The position numbers and the translations under genes were made by a program. The notes under the pieces are model-generated. The model was not told where the DNA came from. It searched no databases and worked only from the letters and a program-made list of their open reading frames with translations. A stretch of DNA of 61,607 nucleotides, the filler included, from Hausera hauseri (taxonomy: Eukaryota): NCBI GenBank assembly GCA_046269625.1. It is 12 parts of 12 records of this genome, joined end to end, with 100 filler letters (N's around TTAATTAATTAA, not from the genome) between each part and the next. Parts side by side here need not be neighbours in the genome. Positions count along the whole stretch, not along the records: positions 36,904 to 40,984 come from JBJURY010773649.1; 11 more parts are not named here. One strand, written 5' to 3'. This document shows, one piece after another, positions 13,408-54,103 of the stretch; the first letter of the stretch is position 1, and the number at the start of each line of letters is the position of its first letter.

Positions 13408-13996
13408 AATCATATTTTATCAGTGATATTTCAGATCCTGTATCTATTAGTGCATAAACCTCCCAATCTTCCAATTGAATCTTTGCAAAAGGCCTGCCTT
13501 CGATCACTGTACCGTAATAGCTTGGTGCTATTTTGGGTTGTCGTATGGTAGACACCTTGTAACCGTTAATGGTAACTTCAGTGGTCCCAACTGGCTGCTC
13601 GACCATCTGTCTTAACTTCCCAGTTGGGTATAGTGCATTATTCGTTTCATTCGCGTTTTCCACTCTCTGGTTTCTAACCGTCGGTTGAACATCTGAGGTT
13701 TCGAGATTTCGTGCTTTATGGCGTCGAGTAAGTATCAATTGCATTTTGTTTGATTTAGGTATTCTGGGCGAATAAATTATACTGTGGTCGTCGACTGCTG
13801 ATCTATGGTGTGGAATCGAGGTTTTCTCCATTTCATGGATCTTACGCAGTATCCCATAACGTTTTGTTCCTTTGTAAGGATCCTCTAAACTAAACCGCTT
13901 CCGATAGAGGTCTGTCTGGCACGAACTCATAGACTGTTTCTCACAATCTTCATATATAGGCGCCGTTGGCGGCAATATGAGTAATGGTAGTTTCAT
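13408..13996 (-). CDS. Linker + retropepsin aspartic protease (start of pol), truncated by contig end
   Basis: GRPFAKIQLEDWEVYALIDTGSEISLIK. Confidence 0.85.
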
Positions 13997-14099
13997 AACG
14001 GAGTAATTTTTGTGCCTGTTTGACCTGAAAGGAACATCTCCTCCCTTAGGCTAATCATCATAATTATTTCTTCGTGTCTTGCTATCTAAGAATTTTTGC

Positions 14100-16003
14100 C
14101 TGTAATATATTAGGCGTCTTTTACGTTTCTTATTGTGATAACCAACATGTCGTTCTACATTTGTTTTCCATTTATTCTCTTCGTAAGTCTTTAAGAATTT
14201 GCCGAAAGGAGTAATAATAGCCGTTAGAAATTTTCATAAAAATCCTGTCAAGGTAAATATCTCATATCCATTTATGATTGACTGAATTATAGCTTTTACC
14301 CTTTGAATTAGAAATATATTGCTAGAAATCCTGACGCGGCTTGCCCGAATATTAGGAATCTTCTCCAAATTTTGTATAATATTTTTGTAGTTACTTTTTT
14401 ATAATATCCAACACCAAGTAATGACTCCCATTTTGCCTGGTAACGTGAGTCCTCTAGTATTGTATGCATCGCTCTATTCAATTCATGTGTGCGCTGACGA
14501 GGAAAAGCGAGAAATTGTCTAAACGCCTTTACTTCTTTTGGTCGGTAAATACCCTTCGCGGCCGTATCTTGAAACTTATCATCGGTTATTCCTTTTATTA
14601 GATTTGTACCTGTTAGCTTGGTAGGTAGTGCAATAATACCACCATTGGGTAAACTTACCCAGTCAGTTTCGCTGCATCTAAACATCGGCTCTCCTAAACT
14701 AGTATCTTAAAATGGTTGGTTGAGTGGCGTTCGTCAACAATACTCTGGTAATTGGTGTTGCTAACCTTGGTATGTCTTGATAGATTACCGGAAACTCTTG
14801 TATACACCTCTTCTCTTCCACATTAATCTGTACATCTTTCTTCTCGCACTCATACGTCAATAACACTTCTCCGGTTACTCGTCCAAAAACACTTTCCTTT
14901 ATCGGAATTATTGGTGATGCCAACTCGGGGTTTGCGTATATTAGAGCTAATTTAGTTCTCATGATTTCCAGATCCAATTTACAGTCGTTTTTTATCATTT
15001 TACGGTATAATTCGGCTATTCCGGCTTGTCCCTTATAGTAGAAATAGTCGTCTCTGTTCTTCAAATAGTCTTCAATCCGGATGTCTTGAGTCTCGAGTTT
15101 GAACGTTCTGGCGTTTATTTCTGTCTCGGCTATAAAAAATGCTTCGTAGTTGGTGGCATACATTACGACGTCGCATCTAGAGAGCATGTCTTTCTTTATA
15201 AATTTTAATCCATGAAAATCAGAAATCAGTATTGTAGGTGTGGACTGTTCGGCTACATCCTCTCGCGTTTTAGAGTTAGTTTCTTGGCTACTTATGTACC
15301 GTTTTCCCGTTGTCTCGTTGAATTTTAGTTCTTTAATTCGGATAAAATTACAATCAGTCTTGGCTAAAGGTTCCTAAATTACTACTGAACTACGAAATGG
15401 ACATGTGCCATCCTGAATGTGGCATTTGTAATTCTCGGTGTAATGCTTAGTAACGCTATGGAACATCACTTTCTGCATACGCATTTCGGTTTCGTAAAAA
15501 TCTACTACTACGACGTTCGGCTCCAATCCTTTTTCGGTATCGTATTCCGCACCTTGGCAATGTCTCGTGTGCATGTCTAGCCTTCCGGCCCCTATTTTGT
15601 ACACTCTGACTATTTTTCCTTGCTGTATCTTTAGTTTCATACCATCCCACTTTATTCTTCCCGTCTCTCTTGCTTGCTTACAATGTTGACATTCTAAATT
15701 CATCGGAATTGATGGGGTTCTCGGCTTTATTACTGACGAGTGCCCATGTATCAGTCCACAATGAAAAATGCTGCGAGATCGCCTCAACATACATTCTACT
15801 CCGTCTAATGCAATTAGTTCACGTTGTTGGTATAATACGTAACTCTTTTCTTTTGTTTCTAATTTGTGTGGTCTGTAGTCTTCACACATTTCCAAGTCCA
15901 TTAGTGAGTATTTTTGGCCAAGTCTAAATTTGTCACAATCATATACTGTGACTGCACCCATTTGTTTTATCAACATCATCATGGTCAGAAAGTTTATTAG
16001 CCA
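14100..16003 (-). pseudogene. env: Chuvirus/gB-like (class III) envelope glycoprotein, frameshifted
   Basis: Hydrophobic signal, then AVTVYDC...SLMDLEMC...YQQ...ECMLRRSRSIFHCGLIHGHSS, GEVLLTYEC, CIQEFPVIY, PITRVL, GIY, and a C-terminal TM FLIFGQAASGFLAIYF. This is the Cys/motif pattern of chuvirus-type G proteins. Confidence 0.8.
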
Positions 16004-19000
16004 ATTCGATTCGTTTCCTCTACGATTTCCAGCTATATTTCGTAGCAATTCTTCGAATATATTGTTATCGAAGGGGAATCCACTCTGATTTTCTTCCTCT
16101 TTTTTGAATAACTTAGACCAATTCACTTCTCGGGATAACTTTCTGGCAGCCTTCCTTGCCAAGCTAGTAGCCTTGATGAACTCATTTTCCAGATTTGGAT
16201 TGGTTTTGATGGCCAGGTATAGCAACACCTTTCTCAGTTCCTCTATAGTATTTTCTACCATAATTTTCTCGATTATCATTTCATCACTTAAAGTGCTCTT
16301 AGTTGATTTACAGCGCAGGTTCTTCATAACCTTTGCGGCGTTCGCTATGGTCTTCTCCTTCTCATCTAATATGTCACTGCTGAGGCTAGAGTAGTTTACT
16401 ATTCGTATCAAATCTTTCATCAGTTCGTTCAGTTCTTCATTATCTGCGCCAACGGTCGGTATGAACATCTGCCTCAATTCTCTAATCGAGTCTCCATTAT
16501 AATCGATTTCATTTCGTTTTATCCGTAGCCTACCAACAGGACGTTTCTGTTTTGTTACCACGGTTATATTGCCATCGATTGGTACTAAATTCTTATCATA
16601 CTGCTCGTTATCTTCATCCGTTTGTAAATACTTAAAATACACTGCTGCACCCCGGACTCCCATTATTCGTCCTACCTGTTGTTCTGCTTTAGCCTTTTTT
16701 ATAGCCTCCTCCTTTATCTCGTCGTTAGCGGTGGTTACCACCAACCGATTTACTTCCTCTTGAATAATTCCAACTTCTATTCATGGTTCCGTCTCGTCTA
16801 GTATCCTTCTTCGGAAATAAAGCCTATAGATCAACTCATGGGCATATCCGTTGTTCTTCATCCACAGTAATACATCCTTTACAAGGGAACGCGTAGTGAA
16901 CTCTTGTTCCTTCTCGTCCATCCAATCTGATGCTGTTTTTACTAGAATCGTTTCTTCTGCCTTTGCCTTTAAAATTTTGGTATATACTTTGAGTAAAAGC
17001 TTAGGTACTGTACTAAAAATCGTACCTTCACTAGCCAATTTAGTTAGAGTGGGGACTAGCTGTCTTAATTGAATTTCAGCAAGATTTATTTCTATCAGCT
17101 GAGTTAAATCCTTCTCAGTTTGCGCTGGGTCCAGAAGCATTTCTTTGTTGAACCTTTGTTTAGGAGAATACATTTCCATTTAGCTTAAGTGTATTGGGTT
17201 TTTCAGATTTCCCGCAATCATTGCATCTAAATAGGCTTCCCAATCTGGTTCATTTTCATTATCTGGCAGTTGATAGTTCTTCAACGGTGAATCGGTTGGC
17301 CTACCTACCACTGTGGGCCACGTAGTTGCTCGGAGTACTTGTAATTTCTGTTGCATCTGGACCATTTGGCGGACGTTTGGTGGAGCAGTGTTAAGAATGA
17401 ACATAATTCTTCGGGTGAAATTAGACTCTTTTCTTGGTATTTCGTTAGTTCGGACGTGACATCTATTTGCCATCTTTGACTGAATTGTGACTTGTCAGCT
17501 TTTTAGGCTTCTGTAAGGACGTATTGGTTTTTGTAAACTTCGAGTTCTCTAGCTAGTTCGTCCAACCTTATTGCTCTCTGTTTCGTCTTAATGCAAGTTT
17601 CTTCGACTTGCTGTATCTGCTGCAACAATTGTCTTAGTTTCTCATCACTAATTTCTGCCATTTCGGCCATCAATAGCGCTAGTTCGGACATCTCATTAAT
17701 GTTCTTTGAATTCGGATCTATCGCATCTATTAGTTTTTTTACGAACTTAATATCTTCGAAGTTAAGGTGGCGGTCGTTCATTATTTTAGTTAATTCGGCA
17801 TGAAGTCTTTGGTCTGTTCCATCTCTCCACTCTTGTGGACGATGTAAGAACTTAACTGCTTCTTTAACAACTGATCGGTATTCGGGACAAAAGTCCAAGG
17901 TTTTAAAATCTTGTGACGAGATTTCTTCGATGGGTTTGGCTGTCAACCAGCGTATTCCTTTCAAGCAGATATCTCTTAGTCGTGGGTAGAAATCGCAAGT
18001 CACGTTTCGCTTTCGCGTGAAATTAGTTTCTTCAATCATTTTATATATACCGTTTAGCACCATCATCTCTCCTTTCTTTTCCATGAAGTTTAATTGACGT
18101 AGTGCTTCGAATTGGGTTCGGATGTCAATCTCTGCTTTCATCGTATCTAGGTTTTGGGCGTCTTCTTCCAGCTGCTTCTTAACTGTAGGTTCACTTTCTG
18201 AAAATTCCTTTTTTCGATCGGCCACTAATTCACTCAGCCTCGTTATTACTCCTGACTATTCTTTCAACTGGTTAGCGATTTCTGGCTTTGCCAGTATCGC
18301 TTTATTTAACATTTTGCGGGCGTCATTTAGCTCGTCATCTGGACCTCTAATAAAATCGATGATCCGGTAGGCACAGTCAAACTCATCTTTATATTCATCT
18401 AATTCGAAGAGACAAGTATGAATTATTTTCTGTGTTTTTATATCAGCTGGGTGCATGATCCTATTCCTTAGACTATATATCTGCGACCGCTTTTCGACTT
18501 CTATTTTAAGACGGTTTTCCAAACTAGTATATTGCCTTGTCGCAGTAGAAGCGATTTTTATCATTTCCGTTAATGGCGGAATATCCAATACGTCTATGCC
18601 TAACATCTCTAAGTCGTTTGCATCTCGTTCTTTGTCCGGCTTCTTTCTTAGTTGTTCGACTATGATGAATCTAAATTCGTCCATGACACGCTCCAAATTA
18701 CATGCTGCTCTTTTTCATTTCGGGTTGGCTTCTAATGTAGCTAATAACGACTGAGCCTGGTTGACCCTAGTTTCAATGTTTTGGGTAGTTTTATCCCATG
18801 TCTCCGGAAGTTTTGTCTTACTTCTGATCCACCGTTCTAACTCACGTTTCAACTAAACTAGGGTTTCTTTTGCCACTTCTTCTGGTTGATCCAAATCTAT
18901 AGCTTCACTTAGTTTCCCTTTGCTACATAGTTTCATATTTTTATATAATCTTTCTGCAAACTGCTGTTCTTTACCATAAATATCCACTTGTTCGCTCACT

Positions 19001-19548: not shown

Positions 19549-19694
19549 ATTAGTTAGTCTTGGTGGGGCAGTGGAATGTTCCTATTCCGTTTCTGGTTTA
19601 CGCAGGCCATGGTAAACTTGCATTAGGCGTAATTTATGCTCATATTCATTTCTAGCCACTAAGTCTTTTGGGTCATTAGTTTGAGGCTGTGCTT

Positions 19695-20864
19695 TTAAAA
19701 AAGCCGTAAATTCTGTATCTCAATAATCATTCCTGTGTCTTTACAAACACCGTAAATTACTTCTAAATTTTCGTTTTTAATTACATTGGTTTTATTAGGC
19801 TCCACAAACGAGACACTTCGCGGATTCGGATAGGACCTCGCTATGTGTCCTTCTTGTCCACATGTGAAACAGATCAAATTGCCATTTCTTCCAACCCTTT
19901 GTCTACCATCCTCGTTTAACGGAGATTTCGATCTACTCGGATTTATATTGTAACCTTGCTGCGGTGGAGTCTGTCTAGGGTCTCCATATTGACAATTATC
20001 GTAACTCCGGTTGTCATTTTGTCGACTAAAGTTTTTGGAGCCATCTAGGCGTTTATCTGTCTGGTAATTTGGTTTATTAGACAAACTATTTCGACTATTA
20101 TCAAACTTCTGATTGCTGTATCGATCGTTTCGGTGATCATAATTACCGTTTCTGTTCCTATCTCCATAATTCTTGTTAAGTCGTCTATCGGTTCTATTGT
20201 GGCGATTTCTATCGCTCCGATCGCCTTGATCATTATTTCTATCATTATTTCTAGTATATCTGGCCAACGCCATTTCTATATCTTGAGCTAATTGCAATGT
20301 CATATCAAAATTCTCTGGACGTGCTAGAATCAATTGCTTCACTATGTCTTTAGACCAAATCCCATTTATTAATTTCGTCATTATCATGACGTCTAAATTA
20401 GGAGGGCTTGCCTTTTTTGCGGCCTCACGTTCTGCTTAGATTTTAGCCTTTGCTATGTTTGCTATCCTTCAGGTACTTACATAGCTGTTTGTCAACTTCT
20501 TTAATGCAGAAGCGAATTGGGTTATCGATTCACCCTTTTGTTGTACTTGATTCTGGAAAGCCATGAGCTTTTGTTGCGGAGTTACAGTCGGCAATAATTT
20601 TCGATTCAAGGCTCCTACCAGGGAGGACCAAGTTTTATTTTCATCATCCGTGAGTTCACTATAGGCATCAGCGGCCAGATTCTTTAGATACAGGGACAGA
20701 CGTTTGATAATTACGTTAGCTGCTAATCCATCACCTTCTGCATGTAACTTATATGTTCTTAAAAATTCATTAAGTCCATCCGGGTTTCCAACGTACGCCG
20801 GCAGATTAAGAGAGTTAAATGTGAAAATGTCCAACTTTTGCGCTACTGCCTGATTTTCAACCAT
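19695..20864 (-). pseudogene. gag: Gag (capsid + NC) with premature stops
   Basis: LSLYLKNLAADAY..W..L, QQKGESITQFASALKKL (major-homology-like), an R/N-rich NC region and a degenerate knuckle CFTCGQEGHIARSY. Confidence 0.85.
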
Positions 20865-21015
20865 ATTTTTAAAGTTTAATAGATTTTGCTTTACTATCCT
20901 ACGAGCTCTAATTTTNNNNNNNNNNNNNNNNNNNNNNNNNNNNNNNNNNNNNNNNNNNNTTAATTAATTAANNNNNNNNNNNNNNNNNNNNNNNNNNNNN
21001 NNNNNNNNNNNNNNN

Positions 21016-22180: not shown

Positions 22181-23102
22181 CCACGGATGAAGAAGTTTAT
22201 GTGAAGGTGAATATAGATGGAAGAGGGTTGCAGATTCCCAAAGAGATGTAACGTGGCGCCGTAATGTGTGAGGTAAAAGTCTGGTGTGCGAAAAAGAGTG
22301 GAGATGAAGTTATAAATTGCCGTCGTGTTTAAATGCGTTACAGCATTTGTGCAAATGTGTTTGTTATTTAAGAAAAAATAGGAAATGAGAAGAGGTCGTG
22401 TAGCCGGGGCATGTCGCGGAGCGACAACGAAGGGTGCCGTCCGACCCAATGGTATAGGGTGGGCGGCCGCGGTTTTAGCTTCGCCGCGGCGGGTCGCAAA
22501 CTAAGGGGTAACCGATATCTTACCAGTCTTGGTGTAGAATGTATCCAAACCTACAACCATAGTCGGACTAAGCTTTAAATCAATGTCCCACGGGTCATAA
22601 TCAATTTTAGCAAACATATGCACTACGGTTTTATTAGCAACAAATATCAAAGTAATATTCATTTTATTCACCTGGATTTGTTTGATGATGGTGCTAGCCA
22701 CAATGGCTTTGTTGTCCTTTCTTCGTTTCTGTTCATTTTCGACGAGTGGTAATTCTTCAGGTCGTGCCATTCAAGAAGTCATAGTTCGGTGGAACCTGCT
22801 TAGAGCTGGAGCGTTCAGATCTTTTAAATTATCCTCGATTGCTTCTTGGAATAGCCGGATTTATTCGGCTTTTGCTCGCTCTGTGCTAGGATCGCCTAAA
22901 ATCGGCGAACGAGTCTATCGGATACTCCTGGCGACACAATCAATGGAAATATGCGGTATAAAAATTTTGTTGAAACCCGTTTTATTTGTAATTGCGCAAT
23001 AGTGCATGTCTGCGAACGCCATACTCTAACTGTACTCACCGACTATTTCATTGTTAACGAGATCTCGATTGTGCTTCAATAACAAAGAGGCTAAGAATTT
23101 CT

Positions 23103-35506: not shown

Positions 35507-36016
35507 ATGTCTCACTTGACTACACAACTCATTAGCTTATACCACTCATTCGACGGATTCCGGAACCACCTGTACAATCTCGATCGACCTTTGGACAATG
35601 CTCGATATTTGCCTCCGGGAGAGCTACTTCTACTTGCTGAGCAGAATTGGAAAGCACGAGAACCCTACTTACGTCATATGAAGCAGGTTGTTTGTGATAT
35701 GGAATTTTTATTCCGTAAGATTTTTTGCATATATGGAAAAATGACGACGTTGGACGATAATCCTCGTCAAGTACGTCAGTTTATGACCGATTTTGTCAAA
35801 CGTGGTAGTAGTGGTAGTCAGACGAATTACATTCCTACGTGTCAGTCAGCAGATGAAATTTTCTTGAAGCAATATTGCAATATGATTAATTCCGATAGTC
35901 TAGATCATTCTTCTTCTTCGAATTGGTTAATCTCTGTGGTTTGTGTAATCCGAATTGACTCGAACAATTTAGTAGCAGTAGCATTACTTGTACAAAAAAA
36001 TAAAAGTTTGATGTAA
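35507..36016 (+). CDS. Hypothetical Polinton-associated protein
   Basis: 169-aa ATG ORF preceded by TATAAA at ~35464, divergent from polB; no family recognised. Confidence 0.35.
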   Translation: MSHLTTQLISLYHSFDGFRNHLYNLDRPLDNARYLPPGELLLLAEQNWKAREPYLRHMKQVVCDMEFLFRKIFCIYGKMTTLDDNPRQVRQFMTDFVKRGSSGSQTNYIPTCQSADEIFLKQYCNMINSDSLDHSSSSNWLISVVCVIRIDSNNLVAVALLVQKNKSLM

Positions 36017-36072
36017 AGTTCGTTTTTTCGTTACTCAAAACGATCATTATAGTGAGGTAGGTGGGAAATGGT

Positions 36073-36720
36073 GTTGTCCGAAAACTAGGTTATTACAAAA
36101 ATTTTTCCGACTGAACTCATCTTGCTGAGTCTAAATATGCAGGTGTCCAGAACTAGGTCAGTCTACAAATTTTTCAGACTCAACCCACCTTGCTGAGTTA
36201 AAATATGCAGGTGTCCAGAACTAGGTCAGTCTAAAAATTTTTTCGACTCACCTCATCTTACTGAGTTCAAATATTTAGGTGTCCAAGACTGGGTCAGTCT
36301 AAAAATTTTCCCGACTCAACTCACCTTGCAGAGTTCAAATATGCAGGTGTCCAGAACTAGGTCAGTTTAAAAATTTTTTCCACTCACCTCACCTTACTGA
36401 GTTCAAATATTCAGGTGTCCAAAACTGGGTCAGTCCAAAAATCTGTCCGACTCAACTCACCTTTCTTCGTTTAAATATGTAGGTGTCTAGAACTGGGTCA
36501 GTCTAAAAATATTTTCGACTCACTTCACCTTTCTGCGTTCAAATATGCAAGTGTCCAAAACTGGGTCGGTCCAAAAATTTTCCCGGCCAAACTCAACTTG
36601 CTAAGTTCAAATATGTAGATGGCCAAAACTGGGTCAGTCTAAAAAATTTTTTTGACTCAACCCATCTTACCGAGTTCAAATATGCAGGTGTCCAACCTGG
36701 GTCAGTCAAAAAAATTTCCC
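36073..36720 (+). repeat. 68-bp tandem minisatellite, about 9.5 copies
   Basis: The unit GGTGTCCAGAACTAGGTCAGTCTAAAAATTTTTTCGACTCAACTCACCTTGCTGAGTTCAAATATGCA recurs at 36142, 36210, 36278, 36346, 36414, 36482, 36550, 36618 and 36687. Confidence 0.95.
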
Positions 36721-36903
36721 AACCCCACTCAGTCAACCCAACACAATGCCACAATAACAAAAGAAATTAAATAAATAAATAAATAAAATAAAATAAAACA
36801 ATANNNNNNNNNNNNNNNNNNNNNNNNNNNNNNNNNNNNNNNNNNNNTTAATTAATTAANNNNNNNNNNNNNNNNNNNNNNNNNNNNNNNNNNNNNNNNN
36901 NNN

Positions 36904-39900
36904 CATAAACAAGGGCCTTCCTTTCGTTTACGATTATAGTAACCGATATAGCGTTCTACGTCCGATTTCCATCTATTTATTTTGTATGCTTTTAAGAATT
37001 TTCCAAAAGTCGTTATGATTGCAGTCAGTATTTTACATGAAAATCCTGCCAATGTAAATATTTCATACAGATTATTATTACTGCTTGGATGACTGCCTTA
37101 ATCATTTGTATCAGAAAATATATTGCTAAAAATCCGGATGCGGCTTGACGAAAAATCAAAAATCTTCCCCAAATTTTGTAGAGTATTTCTGTGGTTACTC
37201 GTTGATAATGATTTACGCGCAGCAGGGATTCCCATTTAGACTGATACCGAGTACAGTCTACTACGGAGGCCATGGCTCGGTTTAATTCGTGTGTCCACTG
37301 TCGCAGAAAAGCGAGGAATTGTCTGAAGGCTTCGATTTCTTTAGGTCTATATATGCCTTTTGACGAGGTGCCTTGAAATTTATCGTCTGTAATTTCTTTT
37401 GCAAGATTTGTTTTTGTTAATTTATTTGGGGCGGCGGTAATGCCTCCATTTGGCAAACTAACCCAATCCGTTTCACGACATCTGAACATAGGTTCTCCTA
37501 AACTTGCTTTACAATCCTTAAGGATTGTCGGTTCAGTTGCGTTGTCTAATAGCATTCTAGTGAGTGGCATAGCTAACCTTGGAATATTCTGGTAAATAAC
37601 GGGAAGTTCCTGCATGCAGCGTTTTTCTTCAACGTTGATTGGTACATCTCCTTTCTCACATTCGTAGGTCAGCAGTACTTTACCGGCAACTCGACCGAAA
37701 ATTCCTTCTCTCATAGAAATTATTGGGGATGCCAACTCGGGATTAGCGTAAATAAGAGCTAGTTTTGTCCTCATAATTTCCATATCCAATTTGCAATCAT
37801 TTGTTATAATTTTGTAATATAACTCGGTTATTCCAACCTGCCCTTTGTAATAGAAATAATCGTCTGTATTTTTTCAGGTAATCCTCGATTCGGATATCTT
37901 GCGTTTCTAACTTGTAAGTCTTCGCACTTATTTCTGTCTCGGCGACGAAAAACGCCTCGTAGTTAGTAGCGAACATCACTATTTCACAACGAGAAATCAT
38001 TTCTTTCTTAATAATTTTTAGCCCATGCTGATCAGAGATTAATATAGTGGGCGTAGGATGTTCTGCTACATCTTCGCTTGTCCTTGAGTTGGTATAAGAT
38101 TTATCCGCATATCGCTTTCCAGTAGTTTTAATAAACTTTAATTCCTTAATTCTGATAAAATTACAGCTTCTTCCATAGGGAGGTTCCCATATTATAACCG
38201 AACTTCTGAAAGTACAGGTGCCGTCCTGTAAATGACATTTTTGATTCTGGGTTTATAGTTTAATGACACTATGGAACATTACTTTCTGTGCTCGAATCTC
38301 TCATTCATAGAAATCCACGACCACTACGTTTGCTTGTAATCCTTTTTCGGTGTCGTATTCCGCCCCGATACAATGTCCGTTATGCATACCTAACCTTCCG
38401 ACCACTACCTTATATGCCTGATTATCTTTCCTAGTTTCATTTTTAATTCCATACTGTCCTATTGTACCCTTCCGGTCTCCTTAGCCTGTTTGCAGTTCTG
38501 GCGTTCTAAATTTATTGGAATTGGAGGAGTTGTTGGTTTGATTATTGAAGAATGTCCATGTACTAATCCACAGTAAGAAACGCTACGAGATCGCCTCAGA
38601 AAACATTCCATTCCATCTAAGGTTATCAATTCTTGCTGTTGATACAGAAGATAATTTTTCTGTATTGTTTCTAACTTGTGCGGCCTGGAATCTTCGCACA
38701 CTTCCAAATCAATTAGGGAATATCTCTGACCTAGTTTAAACTTTTCGCAGTCGTAGACAGTAATAGCGTTTATGCGCTTTATTTGCATCATCAAGGGGAG
38801 TAAGTTGATTAGCCAATTTGATTCGTTTTCCTTGTTATTATTATCGGTTGTTACCAAATTACGTAACATATCCTCGAATCTATTACTATTACCCAACCGT
38901 TTTTCTTCTTCCTTGTCGAATAGTATTAACCAATTTACTTCGCAGGGCAGCTTTCTCGCCGCTCTTCGTGCTAAGCTTGTAGCTCTATTAATTTCATTTT
39001 CTCGATTAAGATTTACTTTGATAGCTAAGTATAATAATACCTTTCTTAATTCTTCGGTGGTGTTTTTTACCATGATCTTTTCGACTACCGATTCGTCGGT
39101 TAAGTTAGTTTTCAATATTTTGAAACGTAAACTTTTCATCATTCTAGCTGCATTGAATATTGTTTTTTCTTTATCATCTAATGTGTCATCACGAAGGCTT
39201 GAATAATTTACAATACGTATTAAATTCTTCATTAATTTGTTTAATTATTCATTGTCTGTGCTGAAAGTAGGAATCGACATTTGTCTCAATTCTCTAATCA
39301 ATTCTCCATTATAGTCAACTTCTCGTGTCTTCTTAGGCCTTTCGACCGGACGTTTTTGTCTTGGGACATTGGCATTCACTCAGCGGCACTAATTTCTTAC
39401 CGTATTGTTCCTTGTCCTCATCCGTTTGTAAATACTTGAAATATATTGCAGCATCTCGCACTCCTATGATTTGTCCTACGCATTGTTCTGTCTTGGCCTT
39501 ACGCGTGGCTCCTTCTTTTGTCTGTTCATTGGCTATTATTACTACTATTCGATTTGTTTCGTCGGGGATAATCCCTACATCTATTAATTGTTCTAAATCG
39601 TCGAGTATCCTACCTCTAAAGTAAAACCTATATTTTAGCTCATTTCTTCCGCCATTATTTAATAACCATTCTCTTACGTCCCTTACATAGGAATGTGTAG
39701 TTAACTCACATTTTTTTTCGTCTATCCACTCGGATGATACCATGACTTTCATCGTTACCTCAGGTTTGGTCCTCAACATTTTAGCCTATTTCCTTATCAG
39801 AAGTTTCGGCATCGTACTATAAATTGTATTTTCACTAGATAATTTAGTTAAGGTCGGAATAAGTTGTCTTAACTTACCTTCAGTAATATTTACGTTAATT

Positions 39901-40984
39901 AGTTCAATTAAATCTTTTTCAGTTATCGCTGAATCTAGGAGCATCTGCACATTGAATCTCTTGTTCTGGGCACGCGTTTTTATTTCATTTAGTTGTACTG
40001 GAGTCGCAGGATTTTCGGCCGTTATCGCATCTAAGTACGCATCCCATTCTGGTTCATTTCCAACATCTGGAAGTCCATAGTCTACTAAGGCTGTATTCGT
40101 TCACTGCACATTTTTTCGAATTTCCTTCAATCTTGGTTGTATTTCTTTCATCTGCGTAGTTCAGAAACTTATTCCGTTTTCGCATGCATACTAAATCATT
40201 TTCAGTAATTCGCCTAATTCATTATAATTGATGAATCCCTTTTGGTGATAATCAGTTAGTTCGATAATTACATTTCTTTGCCATATCTGTACAAATTCTC
40301 GCTTATTTTTGATTTCTGATTCGGTAAAAGCATATTTGTTCCGGTAGGTTCCGAGCTCTTTTACTAATTCATCTAACCTCGTTGCTCTTTGTTTAGTTTT
40401 AATGCACGTTTCTTCTACCTGTCTTATTTTAGGTATCAATTGCCTCATCTTCTCATCATTAATTTCCGCCATTTCTACTAATAGAAGGCTAACGCATACG
40501 TCTCATTTATGACTTTTGAGTCGGGATCTATCGCATCAAGCAATTTCTTTACGAACTTAGATTCTACGAGGCTAAGATGTTGGTTGTCTCTTATTTTTGT
40601 CAATTCCGTATGGCAATTCTGATCTGTTCCGGCCATCCACTCTTGTGGTTTATGCAAGAATTTCATTGTTTCCACTAGGGTTTCGATATCCTGGATTGAA
40701 ATCTCGTTGATAGGTCTATCTGTTAAATGTTGGACCCCTTATAGTCGGATGTTTCTTAATCTTAGATAAAAATTGCAAGTCATATTTCGATTTTTTGTAA
40801 AGTTTGTCTGTTCGATCATTTTATAAGTCTCTTCCAATATTATTACATCTTGTTTCTTCTTCATAAATTTTAGCTGTCGTAGTGCTTCGAATGGAGTTCG
40901 GATATCTATTTTCGCTTTTATCGTATCTAAATTACGTGCACTTTCTTCTAATTGCCTTTTTATAGATGGTTCCTTTCTGGAAAT
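36904..40984 (-). mobile_element. Env-bearing retroelement, diverged copy 2 (leader, UBL, glycoprotein, TM, tail)
   Basis: Collinear peptide matches to 14100-18200, e.g. IRIVNYSSL, EELRKVLLYLAIK, TVYDC, CGLVHGHSS, TKLALIYANPELASPII and AASGFLAIYF. Confidence 0.9.
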
Positions 40985-41625: not shown

Positions 41626-42207
41626 ATGATCTGCACTACTGTGTGACATGTGACTGATTTGGTTCAAAACAACAGACTTGCAGAAAAGGATTCACATAGA
41701 CGGACAGATTATTTCTGATGTATTTTCTTATCAGACTTTACAATTGTTGATACTAAATCAAATTCCTTTACGTACATGTTGAACGTGTTCTGAGCATCTT
41801 TGCTGTTTGTTTTTTGGTTCTAGCTTTCAACTAAATAAATTAGGATTTTAAAATCTGTTTTAATTTTTGAAAAGGAACGGAAAAAACTAACAAAGAAACA
41901 AAGGAATTTAAAAGTCAGTTTTTTGATACCGTAAAATGTAGAAATGAATTATTATCTATTCAGCAGGATTTAAAAGATGAAATGGCCTTTAACGCTTTAC
42001 TGCGTAAACATAATACAAAAGTTTTTTATTATATTTCTTTATTGATATTTATTGATATTTATCCGTTAGAAAATGTATATGAAGCATTTATTGCCACGAT
42101 GAATGAAATTGGTGTTCTTCAGTTGTTGGGATATTTTAATACAACCGAAAATCATCCGGATGAAAAATCAGCTATGACGTACGTTCAGAATGCGTTCAGT
42201 GGATTAT

Positions 42208-45200
42208 GGGAAGAAAAATTAGTATCCATGAATGGAATTATCGATGTTTGGCTCAAAGTTCAAGCAACATGGCTATATCTGGAACCTATTTTTAGTTCGG
42301 AAGATATTTTGGCTCAAATGCCCGAAGAAGGCAGAAAATTTGACATTGTTGACGTGAACTGGAAAGAGATAATGTCTGAAACCCTTAAAAATTCTAGTTG
42401 TTTAGCAGCTACTGGTCAACGAGACATGTTGAAAAGGCTTACTGAATCTCACAATCTTCTTGAAGAAATTCAAAAGGGTCTAAATGACTATTTGGAGAAG
42501 AAGCGATTGTATTTCCCTCGATTTTTCTTCTTGTCAAATGACGAATTACTGGAAATTTTATCAGAAACTAAAGATCCACAAAGAGTACAACCTCATTTGA
42601 AGAAATGTTTCGAAGGCATTCATCGTCTCGAATTTACTGAACAGATGGAGATTATTGGTATGATTTCTGCTGAATCAGAAACTGTCACGTTTGTCACTAA
42701 AATTTATCCAGCAAAGGCAAAAGGCATGGTCGAGAAATGGCTTTTGCAAGTGGAAAACGTAATGATCAACAGTGTGAAAAAAGTTATTAACGATAGCTGT
42801 GAAAACTATAAGGTATCAAATCGCAATAGATGGGTTCTTGATTGGCCCGGTCAGGTATGTGTTTCTAAATGTAGTAATATTAGAGTAATCCATACAATAA
42901 AGATGAACTAATAAAATCATGGTTTTCAGTAAGTGGACGTTCTTTCGGTGCAGCATTTCCAAATGTAGCCTTTTCATACCTCTTGTTGCTATGTGGCAAC
43001 ACAATGAATAGTAAACAGTGCTAAAGTGAGTGACAACAGACGGTGGTGCTTGTTTATCTGATCACTAACTCTATGGATATGATATTGTTTCTTGCGTATC
43101 TCTTGCTATAGTGACCGCGAACGAGCAATCTAGGAAACAAAAGCCACGACAGAAAAGAACTTTATAACCTGTATTTTTGTTAGAGATTCGGATAGACAAT
43201 GTTAGACATCTACAGTATCACAAGAATGACACGCGGCACTGACAACATAAGTTAAAACTTCAGATTTTTTACTTTAACAACCTCTATGAATATTAGTTTG
43301 TTTAGAAAACATATGTTCTTAAGAAGTGTTTTGCTGTTCTCTCTTCGATATCTGTTTTTGTAAGTACTAATGAAATGTTACATGTTCAATTGATTGTTAT
43401 ATCCCCGAGTATTATGCTACTCGTCGCAATATTATGTTGCATTATCTTAACTGATTATCAGCCACTGACAAGTTTACTTGTCAACCAAATGCAATAGTTC
43501 TGCGCCAGTGACGAGTATTGTTTTTATGCTATCTCAGAAATTTTCACATTGTACTTCGTTTATTGGTGTCTGGAGTTGCTGTAAATATGAAATACCCAAC
43601 TTGCCTAAATTTTTAATTAATTTTGCGGTTTTCGTTGGCGTCTGGGTAATTTTTCTGGTGACGGTCAATGCATTAAAGAACATTTTTGCTGTTAAATCAT
43701 TCGCGTTATTTGTGTGCATATACCTATTAAATTTGCATTATTGAGATATTTTTTTCATATGTAAAAAGCGTAGTTTACCAACGTAAGGTTGTATATGCAT
43801 ACTTTGAAATTTCAGGGTTTTTTAAGACTGTGTAGTTCCAATAATTTATTTTTGTGCTTACAGTTCGTGAATGTGTAAAATGATTGTGAGTGTGCATTCG
43901 TGTAATAATGTTATGCATTTGTAGATGTGTAATAATGTCTAATTAAATTTCAATATTACATATACACAAAAACATGGCCTTCGTTGCTATGCAAATTTCA
44001 AATATGAAAAATATGTAAATTTGCGTTACTAAGTCTTCAAAAATACACCTTGTATTGGTCATGTTTACTAGGTATATGAACTAAACTTTTTTTTTTCTTT
44101 TAATATCCAAAAACTGCATTGATTTTTGTCCAAAACATTGTTTTTTTCTTTCATCGGAGCAAAAATTGAGTTATTCAAAGAAATTAATAGTCAAATGTTC
44201 CACGCATTGAACATATTATTTTACTAATAACTGTATATAACTGTCCTACAACTAATGGAATTTAGATTGTTATTTGTGTGTCGTGCATTATGTGGACTAA
44301 GGAGGTAACTGAAGCAATTTCTACGCCAAGCGGTCTTTCCGAATATCTCCAAATTTGCAACACTCAAATCGAAGATATCGTAAAACTTGTAAGAGGTAAT
44401 TTAGCAAGTGGAGAACGTATAACGTTGGGAGCTCTGACTGTAATAGACGTCCATGCAAGAGACGTTGTAGCGCAAATGGAAAAACTTAAAGTCTCTTCTG
44501 TTAATGATTTTGAATGGTTGAGCCAGTTACGATACTATGACAGAGGTGGTGACGTAATTGTATGTCAAGTAACAACAGAACTTCCATATGGTTGTGAATA
44601 TTTGGGAAATACCCCTCGACTAGTTATTACACCATTAACTGATCGATGTTATAGAACTTTGATGAGTGCTTTAAAACTCAATCTTGGTGGTGCCCCAGAA
44701 GGTCCATCCGGTACAGGGAAAACGGAAACATGCAAAGATTTAGCAAAGGCTATTGCCAAACAATGTGTTGTATTTAATTGTTCGGATGGATTGGATTATA
44801 AAGCCATGGGGAAATTTTTCAAAGGTTTAGCCCAAGCCGGTGCGTGGGCATGTTTTGATGAATTCAATCGTATTGAACTCGAAGTATTGTCTGTTGTTGC
44901 ACAGCAGATTCAGAGCATTCAAATTGCCATTGCTCAAGGTCTGAAAAGATTTGTGTTTGAGGGTACTGAACTCAGTTTGAATCCAACATGCACTATATTT
45001 ATCACCATGAATCCGGGTTACGCCGGTCGACAGGAGTTGCCAGATAATTTAAAGGTTTTATTCAGGAGTGTAGCTATGATGGTTCCAGATTATGCTCTTA
45101 TCGGAGAAATTTCTCTATATTCAATGGGATTTGTTGACGCTCGGACCTTGGCCAGCAAGATCGTTGCCACATACCGGTTATGTTCAGAACAGTTATCTTC

Positions 45201-45369
45201 ACAACACCATTACTACTACGGTATGCGAGCAGTAAAGAGCGTTCTTACTGCTGCTGGAAATCTTCGTCAGAAGTATCCGGAAACCGACAACGAAGCAGTA
45301 TTACTTCTAAAAGCCATTAACGACGTTAATTTACCAAAATTTTTATCACAAGACATTCTGCTATTTGAA
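42208..45369 (+). CDS. Axonemal inner-arm dynein heavy chain fragment (DNAH3/7/12-like linker + AAA1), two exons (to 42854; from 44266)
   Basis: [64 protein letters not shown], Walker A GPSGTGKT and Walker B CFDEFNR. Phase-0 GT-AG intron 42855-44265 joins WPGQ to IVICVS. Confidence 0.93.
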
Positions 45370-46367
45370 GAAATCGATTACCCATATGACCGATTTAACT
45401 TGGCTTTTAAAACGGACTACAACATAACATCGGGGTGTGTGTTAAACTTCGATGATCATATTCAGTTTGTTGTGTCTTCCAATGACGGAAGACTCGGCCT
45501 GCTTTTCAGTGAAATGGAATATGTCATTCATAATGAAGCTTTGAAGGATTTAGAATATTCAGTGCATCCAATATTTGGTTACTTAACATTATCACCAGCG
45601 TATATTGGTACAGCATTTAGCATTAGAATTTTGGGTAAGTTTCCTTTTATTAGTCGATTGGTGGATGTTAATAGTTTAATTAAAGATACCGATGTGATTG
45701 TGACGAAGGAAGTTAAAAATGATAACACCGGATTGATATTCATTACTAATAGAGAGACACTGAATAAAACCGGGATCGAAATATTTCAGGATATTTTAAA
45801 AGCTTATAACAGGTTATCTATAATCGAAGACGAATTTGAGATAACAACGCCGCTATCAGTTCAAGAAGACAATATGGGTGTGGAGAAACTTGCAAGGATA
45901 TACGATAAAATTGTTGAAACACTGTCAAAATCATATATGAAAAAGTATTTGACTCCAACTGTGATGAACCAATACCGATATGTTAGATCATATTTTGGAG
46001 CGACTTTGATGCACTGTATTAGACACAATGCCAGTCATCCGGAATCCTTGTTTCCAAGAGCATGTGATGCTGATTGCTACACAAAATTTCCCAATTTCTT
46101 TAATCCAATTTTAATGGAGTTAAACTGTATAAAGCATATTAATCATCACAAGGCGCCGTTCTATGGTAATATTTCTGGTGACAAACGGTACCAACTTCGT
46201 CATCCGGATATCGTTAGTTATCGGGTTCGATTTTCAAGGAATTTTGAAAAATATCCTTTTCCAAATAGGATGTCAGTTGAAGGAGAGAATGAGGGTGTTC
46301 CAATGAAACCCGAAGATTTGAAATATTTTCATGAATTGTTTGAAGAGAAAGATGCGAGTCTTTTAAC
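45370..46367 (+). CDS. Tandem phosphagen (arginine/taurocyamine) kinase-like domains, in frame with the dynein fragment
   Basis: NFDDH (cf. NEEDH) and [13 protein letters not shown] (cf. GFLTFCPTNLGT), then a second domain [39 protein letters not shown]. Confidence 0.8.
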
Positions 46368-47431
46368 NNNNNNNNNNNNNNNNNNNNNNNNNNNNNNNNN
46401 NNNNNNNNNNNTTAATTAATTAANNNNNNNNNNNNNNNNNNNNNNNNNNNNNNNNNNNNNNNNNNNNGCAAAATTCAATAATTTCGGAATTTCGAAGAAC
46501 CATCAGACGGTAAATAAACAATCGTCATCTAAACAAACCAACCATTATTACTCTTAAATTCTTATTAAGAAATTCATACCATAATTATTACGAAATTTTC
46601 TGCAAAATTCAGGCAGTTTCTCCGATAATCCTAGTGGTGATTTCAGGTATCACTACTTATTGAATAATTATTATTAATACTGCTTGAATCAGTGAACACT
46701 GCTCGATTGGCCATTGTACAAGAGTTTACACAACTTCACCGGATATTCAGAACCGAGACGTCAACGATTTCTGCCATCAAACGATAACAATTAAATATTT
46801 AACAACTGACTATCAAGTGGAAACGAAGTATCAATAACCGTCTTAGAAATCATTTGACAAATCAGCAAAATTGAGAACATTAACAACCTAATTGAATACG
46901 GAGACGCTATGAACCAAGCTAATACTACAAACGATGTTATGAATAATGAGGCCACAGCTGGTAACTAATTATATTCGTATTATTATATAATCACGATTAT
47001 TGATGTTCCGAATTGAAGTGTAATTAAAGTTCACCTAATATGTCGATGATTATTCTGCAGAAACCTGTGATAACAACAAATTTTACAACTACAAAATTTG
47101 AATAGTTTGTGTATTATGCGATTGATGCGAGATGTGATTGTTACGAGATCCAGCAATTCGCGAGGCTCTATCGGACCGTCATCGAACCTGCGAATAGAAT
47201 GATACTCGAAAAAAAACGAATAATTGTGACATACGTGCGGTACATTTCATTCACAGTAACATTTTAATACTTTTTGGAGGGTGTATAATAAATAAGTTCN
47301 NNNNNNNNNAGTAAACACCTGCCTCATTTATACGAGTTAGTAAATATCTGATAATGTGGGACAGACTCTGTGTGTGTGTGACATAAAATGTAGTTTTGAT
47401 AATTGAAGTCAACATATGAAAAATTGACATT

Positions 47432-50133
47432 TCACTTGTCTGCAAATGTTCAATAAAATGACAGAGGACAGGAGATATCAGAAATAGAAATACTCGATTA
47501 CCTGCAGCTGAAACATTTGTATCAGATGACACATTTCGTGGTCGTAGAAAAAGTGACCTATTCGACACAGTTCTCTCTTCATCACAAAATTGTTCGTCAT
47601 CCATAAATGGTACATCATAAACTGCCAAATTAGACAAACTATGTTCAACCTTTGTTGGCGTAACCGAATCCGGAAACATGTAGTCGTCATTAACGATCAA
47701 ACTCTTTCCATCTGTGGGAAATTCCGGCTTTTTAATAGCCTTATTGTCTTTAGTTTCATCGAATTTATTCCGATCCGAGATTTTAATTGATAGCTCTTTA
47801 TTCGGTCTGGTTTTTTCGGCTTTTTTCTCCACTGTTTTTTTCTCAGATTTCGGTTTTGTTTGAACGTCATCAGATATTGACTTTTCAACTTTTTTGATCG
47901 GTTCAGATGGTTTTAGTTTTTCATCAGTTATCCCAATTGAGCTGTTCTCGATGATGATCGAAACTGGCGGAATTTCCGGTGAAGATTCCGCCGATTTTAC
48001 TTCACTTTTAACAGTAATCGATTCAATTGGGGTTTCTTTAGAGATGACCTCAAATTGTTCGACAATTCGCGAAACTCGAGGTTGATCGTCCATTTCCAAA
48101 TTGGGTTTCGTTGGTGAAACGGCATTGTTTTCTTCCAACTGACCCGTTTCCCATTTTTGAATTATTGCAGAAACCCGAGGACTTGATGCTTTGTTGTTTT
48201 CAACGTCTAAATCGATTTTTCCAGTCGGAACAACAGTGGTCGTCTCCGATACACCGAATTGCAACTTTTGAACGATATCATGAACTTTCGGACTGGTATC
48301 TGTTGGTTGGATAAACTCGTCCGATGTTTTCGTTGGATAGGGTTTTGATGATTCGGCTGAATTTTTTTCGAGCATCTGAATAATATCTGATACTTTTGGA
48401 ACGGGGTTCGTTTCGGTTGTTTCTAGAATATTTTCATCATTTTGAGATAACTTATATTCGATTGGAGTGGCTTTATTTAATGTTGCAGTGTGCAAATCCA
48501 ATTCAGGATGCTCAGAAGTAACTGCTGTGTCAGAATCTATGATGTCATTTTGATCGACAGTTCCTTCATAGAAAGATTCTTGGACAATAGTTGGAAGCAT
48601 GTGGATTTTATAATCATTCATCAAATGCTGTTCATCATGTTCCACAATCTGACTTACACTTTCAGTAGCTGGAATTTGATCAACGATTTCTTCTATTAAT
48701 TCTTCAAGAACTCGAGGTTCACTCATCCGCACAATGCTAGATTCATCGACCTTTGTTATATCGGATTGGAACTCAGTTGGAATTTCGACTTCTTTGTTGT
48801 CAATTTCACCATCTTTGATTAATTTCTGTTTTGAAGATCCTTTGAGTTCTCGTTTTCGAACTTTATCGAGTTCACTTTTTACACCGAATATCGATTGTAT
48901 CTTCGTGAGTAAGACGGCTTTCCTTTGTTTTTTGTCTTTCGGTACTTTCTTGGTTTGTATATTAGAATTGTCGTTCAGATCTTCAATGACATCTTCAGTT
49001 GATTCTAGCACTTCGTCTGCTCTTTCACATTTTTTTACGAAAGGTGTTGGTGGCTCTACTTCATTGCTTGTAACGTCTTCCAAATTCGTATGATCCCGTA
49101 TTTCCGGTACTGAAGAATCGTCCTCTACTTCCTTTACTAATTCCTCATTTGCAATTTCTTCCAATTCTGGATGACCTATAACTTCCGGTGCTGCAGTATC
49201 GTCATCTATTTTCTTTACTTCTTCCAGTTGCATATGATCAACTATTTCCGGCACCGAATGTTCTTTTACTTCATCAGTCAAATCTCTATCCGATGGAACT
49301 TCTTCTATAGGAGTAGCATCATATTCAGCCTTGTCGATTTGTGGAATAGTCAAATTCAATTCATTTGGTAGATTGTGATTAATAAATTCATTATCATCTG
49401 CTGGTTTAATATCATCAATCGATTTCGCAATGATTTTATTTTCTTCCACGTTTTCATTTTCAGTCTCATCACCATCGTCAATGTTTCGTTCTGATTCATC
49501 GCTTTCAATTTTTTCACCTTCTGCCAGAGAATCAATCAAAGAAACCTCAGCTTCCTCATGGTACTCCGTAATTGGTTCCAATGACATAAAAGCATGATCT
49601 GAAATAAACGGTGGTGTGTCATTTTCCACCAAATTCTGATGTTCATAATGGGACTTTATTAGACTCTCATCCATGGCAAACAACTCCGTTTGCGTTGTTG
49701 TATACGTGCTGTGCGGACTATTCCAATCCATATTAACAACAAATACCTCATTTTGCTGCACAGGCTCCGTTTGAATTTTCCTGGAACCCATAACATCTTC
49801 CGACCTGGGAAAAAATATCAGTCGATATACTTTAAACAAAACTCCCTACATTTTCACGTCAAATGTTTCCGTATCACCAACGACTATTTGGAACTCGAAT
49901 GTTTCATTCGGCACAACATTGGTACAGAACAACCATTGGCTCTTAGAAAATACGGCAACGTTTTCAGATGATGGAAAGAATCCGGTTCTTTCACTCAGAA
50001 CAAATATTGCCAAAGAAGCTTCCATGAAATCTTCTATTTGCGGACCGAAATATTCGTTAACATTCTTAAATAGTTCCTTAGGAATGTTCGTCGTACTGAC
50101 TAAAAACGCGATTGAAATAAACTCGTCAGCCAT
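47432..50133 (-). CDS. Acidic low-complexity protein with repeated P-[KR]-V-S-x-I-[IV]-[QE] motifs; short introns
   Basis: An exon from ATG 50133 joins the 862-aa ORF via a 45-nt GT-AG intron (49849-49805) in frame. A probable 62-nt intron (47501-47440) is followed by a stop. Confidence 0.6.
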
Positions 50134-53100
50134 CGAAAGTTTGAAAGAAAACAAAACCAGAAAAATTATAAGAAAACGGCTACTGTTCAGTAAACATGAG
50201 TCAAGTTCAAAAAATGCTAGCGAGTATTGGAGAATTTAATCTTGACACACGAATCATTCTAGGCACGAAATTTATTGATTTTTCCGTACAAGTCTATGTA
50301 TTTGTAATTTAAATGGGCGTTCACACTAGCAGTATTCCTTTGGTCGACAATGATTTCATTGTGCAGTCGATATTCATTAACGTGCTGCTCTTGGTGAATA
50401 ATAACACCTTTACTACTGTCTACTGACTAATAAGGGAAATATGGTATTTTCTACTTTATTCAACAACAATAACCACAAAAATTTTGGCAAATGTTTAGTT
50501 CATTATTGTATCAATTAAAAAGGATTGATTTTTTGTGTAATGGCGCCAGCAATAGCAAAATAAGCAAAACCAAACTATTTTGTCTAAGTCAAATATCTGA
50601 AGGTCGTTAACAACTTGAAAAATGACAAAATCGACTAGTTATTTACATGCGGTGACGAGCTGTTTGATTTAAGTTACCATAGAAATTAATATTATTTAAG
50701 TAAAAACGATTTGGATTTTCGTTAGTCATTTTGTCCACTACCACATTTTATCTATATAGTTACAATTGACCAAATGTGTATGTGAACGTCATATTTATGG
50801 ACTACCAGCTAAAGTTCCACAGTTAGGCAGAAATATTGGAATTCTTCAACCGACGAAATATCAAATCAGTGACCACTGAAAATTGTTATGTCTGTTCAGA
50901 CCATAAAATAACAACAGGGGAGACTATTAGCTTTTGGTTTTGCTGCTCCAAGAAAGAACGTAAACAAAGCCACAGTGAAAAAGGTTCATTATTATACTTG
51001 TAAATATTATTTTCATCTTTTTTTAACAACNNNNNNNNNNNNNNNNNNNNNNNNNNNNNNNNNNNNNNNNNNNNTTAATTAATTAANNNNNNNNNNNNNN
51101 NNNNNNNNNNNNNNNNNNNNNNNNNNNNNNTTATTCTCAGTCATCACGGCCTCATACTGTCCACTCTTGCCGAATTCTTTTCTTCAGTACAGTCTTTCTT
51201 CATTATTCACGTTCACCCCCGTGTCCGTGGTGGCATGAATTCCTCCCCCACCATAGACATTAAGGACAAAGCCACCAAACCACCAATCTTTATCACTTAC
51301 CTACCCAAACAAAGTGCTTCAAACACTCCGACATATCACACACTCCCCACTCATTCACCCTGCACAGAATACTTCCTCGACAGCCAAAATTCTACCCAAA
51401 CTTGGTTAAAACTGCATCAGTTCTGGCTGCAATCACAAAACGTCGTCGACCCCTTATCCAAAGTCAATAACCTGTTTTTCCAATTACCTACTTCTATCAA
51501 AACCAAAATTACAAACATCATCAACATCCTTCACCACACCGACCCATATGCTCAACTTTATAATGCCGTTCTTAAGCTCACTCAGCCGTCTTTGTCTCAC
51601 CTCAATACCCTTGGCGTAACATGTGAGCATAGTCCAGAACTTCTTCGGCGTTACTTTTTAAACCCATTGTCTCTTCAAATAAGAGCTGTTCTAACTGTGG
51701 TCGAAGACTCCACGGCACTGGAAAGGTTAGCCAAACTGGCGGACAAAGCCTATGAAGTGCTGCACTCACACACAGCACCAACTGTCTCTGCGGCATTAAC
51801 TACAAACCAACAACAACAAAATGCAATGCTACAGCAACAAATTTCGCAATTAAGCACAGAAAACGAAATGTTTCAAAAAACAATTAATAATATAAATGAG
51901 AAATTAAATGAATTAACTCTGCCTCGACGAAGTTTTTCTAGGGCTGCTTCCCCTGATGTATTTAGTCAACGACAAAGACGGTCGCCTTTGCCTGCGCGGT
52001 CGTCTATCTGCTACTATCACAGCAAATTTTGCAGCAATGATCAGAAATGCTGCATCGGTTGTAAATTTTACACCCCTGATTTTAACACAAGTAACATCGT
52101 TTGCATCTCGCACGCAAAATTTAGAACAAAAGCACAAAAATGCCTACCTGGTTGCAACTACAACACACACAATAAAGCCAACACTATTAAACTCACACAA
52201 AATAGTAGGCCTAACTCACCAACTACAAAAAACTGATTTCGCCGTTAGGACATACGGCAAGTTCTAGCAAAGGCAACAATCTACGAAAAGCTGGCCGACA
52301 CATTTCTTTTGCTGTATTGACGTTGGAAGCCTCAGTCGTCACTCCAACAAAGAAAAACATTAATTTTCTCAGACACCGGTGCAGCAATCTCTTTACTACC
52401 ACCAACACAACACATCCAAAATAATTTTGATTCTAGCAAGCAGCTGTTCACTGCGTCGGTGAACCTTTACAAATTTTTGGTATTACTAAATTAACTTTTA
52501 CCCTATCAAATTTCCCAAACACATTCACCTGGAAATTCACAGTAGCCAATGTGCTCACACCTATATTGGGTTCAGACTTTCTGTCCCACTATAATTTACT
52601 TGTGGATTACAAACGATGTTCCTTAAAGAAGGGAAATAATATTAATCAAATTATCAGCATTTCGGTGACCGCGCGGGCGACCGCTGCCAGGAAGTAAATA
52701 CTGAAAAAAACGACTACCGATTTGAATTATTTTTATACTCACTCATTATTTAGAATTTTTTATTACGGTGACAAATACGATATTGCGTGGCACCCATTAC
52801 TGATAGTATATCTTCAAACACTATCTTCAACACAAACATCCTGCACCTAATACCACCTTGTCATACCACCTCGTCTACAACTCATACTTTAACTGCATCC
52901 AGTCACGATGCATAGATACCATCGGATAACTTTTCATCGTTGCCTTCTTATCTACAACAATACATTTCGTCCTCATGCACGCGTGTGCTGCAAAAGGACA
53001 AATCATTCTTACCACCTCAATCCACCTTCCATCACATAGTAACAGCACATCAAAGATCAATACGTCAAAAGGTCCGGCCACTGTCGCCTTGCCGCAGACA

Positions 53101-54103
53101 GGCAGTGGAGGCTGAGTTTCTCGAACTGGAAAAATCAGGAATAATCAGAAGATCCAAATCCCCTTAATCTTCACCACTACATGTGGTTTCAAAAAAGATG
53201 GTACCTTTCTCCCATTCAGTGATTACCGCCAACTCAACACTATAACAATAATGGATGCCTATCCTCTGCCACTAATCAACGACATCCTTCACAGGCTCCA
53301 TGGTTCCACCATTTTTTCTTGCATTGATTTGCACAAAGCCACCAAATTCCGGTGGCCCCAGCAGACATTCCAAAAACGGCTGTCATTACACCTTTCGGCC
53401 TTTTCGAATATCTTTTCATGCTCTTTGGACTCCGTAGCACTTCTAAGACATTACAAAGGCATATTGATGCAGTTCTCTCAGGTTTAGACTTTGTTTATCC
53501 CTATATAGATGATATCCTAATTGCATCATCTTCATCGAAACAACACTCCGAACACTTAAGTTTAATCTTCAAGCGCTTTCACCAAAACCATTTGCAAATT
53601 AATTTCTCCAAATGCTCCTTTTTTCAACATAAGGTCAACTTCCTAGGACATGTTCTTAGCCCCTCAGGACATTCACCTCAGCCAGAGCGCATCACAGTTC
53701 AAAAACATACAGCTACCAAGTATAAAAACAGATGCGTTCTTTCCTCGGATCCTTGCACTTTATTTTCCATACTGCTCCAGTCTAGCCGCTCCATTTGCGT
53801 CACTAAGCTCTGGCAAAAAAAAACAGCCTATTCAATGGACAGCCGAGCTAGTCAACGTTTTCGATCACCTCAAAGACAATCTAAAAACCGTGGAAATCCT
53901 GGCCTATCCCGACTCCCATGCAGAACTCTACTTAACCACGGATACATTTACAACAGCTGCAGGTGCTGTCCTCCATCAGTTTAAAAATGAATCCCATGAG
54001 CCATTAGAATTCTTCTCTCGAAAATTCACAGCACAAGAGCAAAAGTATTCCACCTTTGACAGACAGCTGCTTGCAATGGTCCTTGCCGTAAAACACTAAG
54101 CAT

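Follow-up and report, generated by a model that had tools for sequence, protein, structure and literature searches.

A probable ubiquitin-like domain ahead of env in an apparently Burro-like retrotransposon of Hausera hauseri

Burro, related elements and the layout of the Hausera copies

The polyprotein of the planarian retrotransposon Burro contains Gag, CCHC knuckles, a MATH domain, a Ubi2/SUMO-like domain (PF11976) placed before BCL-2, an in-frame env, protease and pol, as described in PMC6431247. The env of Burro lies in frame between BCL2 and the protease and is related to mononegavirus fusion proteins; ORF1 is 4,873-5,140 aa in length, and the element exceeds 25 kb (PMC6431247). Burro elements are giant gypsy-like LTR retrotransposons and have a dUTPase between PR and RT. 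Errantiviruses with the gene order GAG-ENV-POL and an env of the HSV/gB type have been described in nematodes, bryozoans and flatworms (PMC13524379), and cytopathic pestiviruses carry a domain of the ubiquitin type within their polyprotein (PMC8310069). The class of domain considered here and its place before env are already published for Burro (PMC6431247), and the arrangement itself is not new; in this respect, the novelty seen in the domain by the first-pass annotation was overrated.

The analysed window is a stretch of 61,607 nucleotides from the Hausera hauseri assembly GCA_046269625.1, in which 12 pieces are linked by spacers of N. It contains two copies of the retroelement region with the ubiquitin-like domain (UBL), copy 1 on 13408-20915 and copy 2 on 36904-40984. 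Since each copy is located on a different contig and the pieces are joined by spacers, the spacing between them is meaningless. The UBL of copy 2 (39540..39752, minus strand) is unbroken, has no C-terminal GG and lies within a 150-codon stop-to-stop frame. The UBL of copy 1 (16736..16948, minus strand) shows 57% identity to it in an ungapped alignment (39 of 69 aligned residues) and contains an internal stop codon at 16783-16781. UBL matches in the window are limited to these two places (the second match has an E-value of 8e-22; all others, E > 5). The first-pass annotation placed a peptide of 72 aa at 39540..39752 and a homologous segment in copy 1. The peptide is encoded there, on the minus strand, which was left unstated, and its length is 71 aa; the copy 1 segment is present at 16948-16736 (minus), ungapped and with one internal stop. 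The claimed position in a retroelement leader is wrong, because ~1,250 codons separate the gag match from the UBL that lies downstream of it.

The order of features on the minus strand of copy 1 begins with the Gag capsid region (20487..20696; PF03732, E 0.00048, 20.7 bits, below the cut-off of 24.1) and a degenerate zinc knuckle (19836..19871; PF00098, E 9.5e-05, above the cut-off). A long helical, likely coiled-coil region follows between gag and the UBL (copy 1, 17506..18714; copy 2, ~40194-40984), with weak sub-threshold matches to helical families only. Just upstream of the UBL, there is a conserved 98-aa module (39789..40082 in copy 2; 16985..17278, with one stop, in copy 1) with 56% identity between the copies. 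By eye, the pattern of this module resembles SAM; no SAM match was obtained in database searches. The UBL is directly followed by a conserved stretch of ~50 aa (39381..39539 in copy 2; 16577-16735 in copy 1), which shows 69% identity and has no family match; it gave no ubiquitin match that would indicate a tandem second UBL. Next comes a helical region with a VNW motif (16040..16441 in copy 1; 38837-39244 in copy 2), a candidate for the BCL-2 place of Burro by position only. Searches gave no support to a Bcl-2 identity for it, with an ESM Atlas recognition of 1668, Atlas matches below 0.9 and unrelated, and no Bcl-2 match in Pfam or PDB. The gB-type viral fusion glycoprotein (env) occupies 14311..16000 in copy 1, where PF24664 matches three pieces (E 1.6e-15, 9.6e-18 and 2.9e-09) interrupted by stops and frameshifts, and 37028..38803 in copy 2, where it is also broken (E 2e-10 and 9.9e-32). 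A single PTAP motif of the late-domain type is located between env and protease in copy 1 (13958..13969); the contig of copy 2 ends before this point. The start of a retroviral-type aspartic protease (13408..13498, with DTGS at 13444; PF00077, E 0.19) closes the contig of copy 1, and RT and integrase of the element are absent from its contigs. The distance from the UBL to the env start is about 250-260 codons, and that from the gag start to the protease motif in copy 1 is about 7.4 kb, or ~2,470 codons.

In copy 1, the frame of the UBL has four stops from 17494 to 14701, runs into env and carries the protease motif again. Over 14200-17494, this frame contains 13 stops, whereas the two others have 110 and 80. 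In copy 2, the upstream helical region is in the same frame as the UBL. Both copies are decayed, and copy 1 has apparent frameshifts between gag and the UBL; that intact elements encode one precursor is therefore something that we infer rather than read directly.

In common with Burro/GYPSM1, the Hausera element has a Gag with a CCHC knuckle, a long accessory region, a domain of the Ubi2/SUMO-like class, an env between gag and pol, and a protease. The Gag is N-terminal (PF03732, sub-threshold, and PF00098), with one knuckle seen; the env stands between gag and protease; and the Ubi2/SUMO-like domain upstream of env is sub-threshold by HMM. Unlike Burro, the element measures only ~7.4 kb from the gag start to the protease, which suggests a smaller element, its ends lying outside the window. 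The MATH, BIR and ankyrin cargo of Burro gave no match on the ORF pieces scanned, which come from decayed copies on partial contigs, and the BCL-2 place is taken by the VNW helical region. In view of what partial, decayed copies show of its size, MATH/BIR cargo, BCL-2 and host, we do not class the element as Burro proper; it is apparently a new and more compact Burro-like element.

The gene order and env class are also those of the GAG-ENV-POL errantiviruses of the gB type, with PF24664 found on five pieces here. The motif Y[AE]TNY of the window env occurs in only four rows of supplement file 3 of PMC13524379, all of them Schmidtea elements, and by eye, in a motif look-up rather than an alignment, it matches the Schmidtea C1a rows. 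This suggests that the UBL-bearing element may be of flatworm type. The word "ubiquitin" is present in none of the seven supplement files of PMC13524379, and the main text contains only "ubiquitously".

Other retroelement sequences in the window are an ordinary gag-protease-RT element at 1-2374 (minus), an RT-integrase piece at 53328-55213 (plus) and two stretches that are 85-88% similar to each other, at 21499-22500 (minus) and 51079-52236 (plus), with weak DUF7041 matches. The region 57840-58574 (plus) has an Endonuclease VII match and a weak hint of protein-primed DNA polymerase B, and is possibly a Polinton-like fragment. A single frame of 717 codons at 44266-46419 (plus) encodes a dynein heavy chain AAA region and then ATP:guanido phosphotransferase domains, a possible fusion or misassembly; a dynein N2 frame neighbours it at 41871-42911 (plus). 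The window also contains a GNAT acetyltransferase frame at a contig end (12529-13359, plus), a tandem array with a 68-nt period (36015-36762) and an acidic low-complexity frame of 864 codons without a Pfam match (47251-49845, minus).

Likeness of the domain to ubiquitin

We consider it very probable that the UBL segment is a domain of the ubiquitin family. Ten of the 14 identities to ubiquitin listed in the first-pass annotation fall within residues 30-69, and all ten recur in the phmmer alignment, which has no gaps and 10 identities over 40 positions; the other four, in residues 1-29, agree with the ubiquitin sequence. Copy 1 keeps only 7 of 15 positions counted as ubiquitin identities. When the copy 2 segment, trimmed to the domain, was compared with the 24,736 families of Pfam, ubiquitin (PF00240) was the sole match (E 0.077), with residues 22-64 aligned to profile positions 20-62 and a score of 13.2 bits, below the curated cut-off of 25.4. 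The UBL of copy 1 had no Pfam match, and the untrimmed 150-aa ORF of copy 2 had none at E 0.05. By our own arithmetic for the trimmed segment, this E-value corresponds to ~3e-6 for one family named in advance, and the chance estimate is ~0.005 after allowing for ~1,700 six-frame segments of similar size in the window. The likeness thus appears to be more than chance.

A sequence search of the PDB with E up to 10 returned five weak matches, all of them polyubiquitins aligned without gaps over residues 30-69; they are below threshold, with a per-domain score of 0.5 bits and totals summed over the repeats. A profile of the two copies had no PDB match. The feature search of the ESM Atlas gave a recognition of 3156 for the UBL (threshold 2300). 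Unnamed clusters made up 23 of the 30 matches, the three shown being 74-76 aa in length at 0.93-0.94, and all seven named matches were ubiquitin or Rad60 SUMO-like (PF00240, PF11976 or PF14560) at 0.90-0.92, the best with 174 shared features; shuffled proteins attain 0.9 in 4-10 of 100 cases.

This background, together with the fact that every sequence match is sub-threshold and that copy 1 in Pfam and the two-copy profile in the PDB give none, is what would be expected if the segment did not have the ubiquitin fold and were a small alpha/beta domain resembling it by chance. We regard that as improbable: the three libraries name the same family in an ungapped register, and Burro has the same class of domain at the matching place (PMC6431247). 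Judged from sequence, the likeness of the UBL to ubiquitin is real and very remote.

Searches for proteins homologous to the UBL region found none: phmmer returned no matches when 1.84 billion representatives were searched with a 498-aa read-through, and scans of viral and metagenome contigs revealed no homologues, so that no deep alignment was possible. A single-sequence AlphaFold model of 84 aa had a pTM of 0.56 and low confidence, with pLDDT below 60 in the second half. Its first 46 residues form a hairpin, a helix and a strand at pLDDT of about 70-80, which is the beta-grasp order; a strand stands where ubiquitin has its short second helix. Among the 50 matches listed by the VIA fold search with this model there was no ubiquitin-type chain, and the best match was a designed protein (Z 6.1, rmsd 2.4, 58 aligned). 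Foldseek with the same model, likewise limited by its low-confidence second half, listed no ubiquitin-type chain and no match at E 0.001. A 327-aa model from a three-row alignment was unusable (pLDDT 42, pTM 0.30). In the structure check proposed in the first-pass annotation, the order of strands and helix in the first half is beta-grasp-like, but the models are of low confidence and leave the fold unconfirmed. The annotation's description of a ubiquitin-like, non-conjugatable domain is supported, short of the fold itself, by the Pfam, PDB and Atlas matches and by the absent GG.

Conjugation, binding face and possible role

The lack of a C-terminal GG was borne out in both copies, where the residues next after the UBL are IIANEQ and TTANDE. 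Without GG, the UBL cannot be conjugated. The UBL resembles integral (type II) ubiquitin-like domains (PF00240, PF11976 Rad60-SLD) in its ungapped residues 30-69, its hydrophobic core pattern and its lack of a conjugation tail; it differs from them in its score below the Pfam cut-off, its altered Ile44 patch and the non-lysine residues at positions 48 and 63.

Deubiquitinases of the UCH kind cut after Gly-Gly. In cytopathic pestiviruses, UCH enzymes cut between the inserted ubiquitin and NS3 (PMC8310069), and by this precedent the UBL could be a cleavage signal for host deubiquitinases, freeing the downstream protein. However, the pestivirus insertions are recent cellular ubiquitin cut by a host hydrolase, whereas the UBL here is highly diverged, neither copy has GG or a basic tail after it, and the env start is some 250-260 codons further on. 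This explanation is already largely refuted, and we give it very little credence. For the same reasons, namely the lack of a di-glycine end and the distance of about 250 codons, the UBL is unlikely to be the processing site upstream of env suggested in the first-pass annotation, a suggestion that is unsupported.

Position 8 of ubiquitin is Leu, a part of the Leu8-Ile44-His68-Val70 patch, and the Ile44-type patch is used by UIM, UEV and Rpn10/Rpn13 receptors. In the ungapped alignment of copy 2 with ubiquitin, Ile44 is replaced by Tyr, Lys48 by Arg, Lys63 by Pro and His68 by Arg, and both copies have an acidic residue at position 8 (E/D). The patch therefore reads E/D8, Y44, R68 and V70. These changes make it less likely that the partners are the classical receptors of ubiquitin. 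The residues Arg42, Tyr44, Arg48, Arg68 and Val70 are identical in both copies, weakly suggesting that the UBL may keep a binding face of new specificity; five shared surface residues at a background identity of 57% have, by our own arithmetic, a chance probability of about 0.06, which is weak.

The same residues bear on the recruitment of ESCRT or proteasome factors proposed in the first-pass annotation, according to which the UBL would mimic ubiquitin or a UBL of the Rad23/Dsk2 type, either recruiting ubiquitin receptors of ESCRT so that budding can occur, or engaging receptors of the proteasome so that the precursor is turned over or processed. In favour of this, the residue at position 44 remains hydrophobic, both copies retain Arg42 and Val70, and the env of the element makes budding plausible. 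However, the canonical Ile44 patch is altered (Ile44 to Tyr, His68 to Arg, an acidic position 8 in both copies), Lys48 is Arg, and the separate PTAP of copy 1, near the protease, provides a way to ESCRT that bypasses the UBL. The proposal is weakened by these points, and we consider it unlikely.

As in the UBL of Ddi1 and the Ubl domains of coronavirus nsp3, the domain could also act only within the element, as a folding aid, a spacer or a regulator of the precursor or the protease. The UBL is in frame with the structural and protease regions and ranks with the less conserved modules, as such a role would allow; against it, Env and two membrane crossings would separate the UBL from the protease, and Burro places such a domain among ubiquitin and apoptosis cargo (PMC6431247). 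We give this role a small share of the probability.

With confidence a little above even, we favour the reading that the UBL is an integral, non-conjugated protein-binding module of the ubiquitin fold in the Gag-side precursor of a Burro-like Ty3/gypsy retrotransposon. This reading starts from the domain order, the frame common to the pieces, the absent GG and the purifying selection. The UBL would be an integral domain of the Gag-side part in a probable single Gag-Env-Pol precursor and would be cytosolic, preceding a stretch of only weak hydrophobicity (13 residues with a mean of 1.15 in copy 2) that may lead Env into the membrane. The protease of the element could release it, and its sheet face may be the docking site for a ubiquitin/SUMO or cell-death factor of the host, or for another domain of the element. 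In that case, the UBL would belong to the host-like regulatory cargo that is typical of Burro-like elements.

Selection, copy number and significance

Between copies 1 and 2, dN is 0.35 and dS is 1.34 in the UBL, 0.30 and 1.87 upstream of it, and 0.21 and 2.63 downstream, with dS near saturation. In the public run X1, 1,935 contig records cover 39420-39779 at >= 80% identity, with no indels among the variants listed (40 of 163). No RNA run was listed as containing the sequence, which does not bear on expression. Among these listed variants, 27 are within the UBL, 18 of them at third positions; 17 of the 27 are synonymous versus 20% expected, an expectation taken over all single changes that leaves out transition bias. 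The UBL frame is under purifying selection, and the X1 records show a large, diverse family whose frame is kept under constraint. With 57% identity between the copies, the UBL belongs with the less conserved modules, along with the one just upstream (56%); elsewhere, the identity is 66-79%.

A more specific picture is speculative, and we doubt that it will hold as a whole. The element may represent a compact, very abundant Burro-like lineage, possibly of a non-planarian (parasitic) flatworm, in which a membrane-tethered cassette of SAM-like, ubiquitin-like and Bcl-2-like domains stands ahead of Env; the rewired sheet face of the UBL would have a specific factor of the host, or Gag itself, as its partner, and the UBL would serve as a matrix-like adaptor between capsid and envelope in one precursor.

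Literature searches returned no functional study of the UBL and only a one-line mention in PMC6431247; Sacco 2022, Grohme 2018 and Lee 2026 may say more. For another cargo protein, the IAP of Burro1, protection of planarian stem cells is reported (a 2026 study cited in PMC13465017). The 71-aa UBL of copy 2, being unbroken, lends itself directly to structure determination and to a screen for partners. With this element, the flatworm-type enveloped retrotransposons that bear host-like regulatory domains gain a further family, which is divergent and high in copy number.
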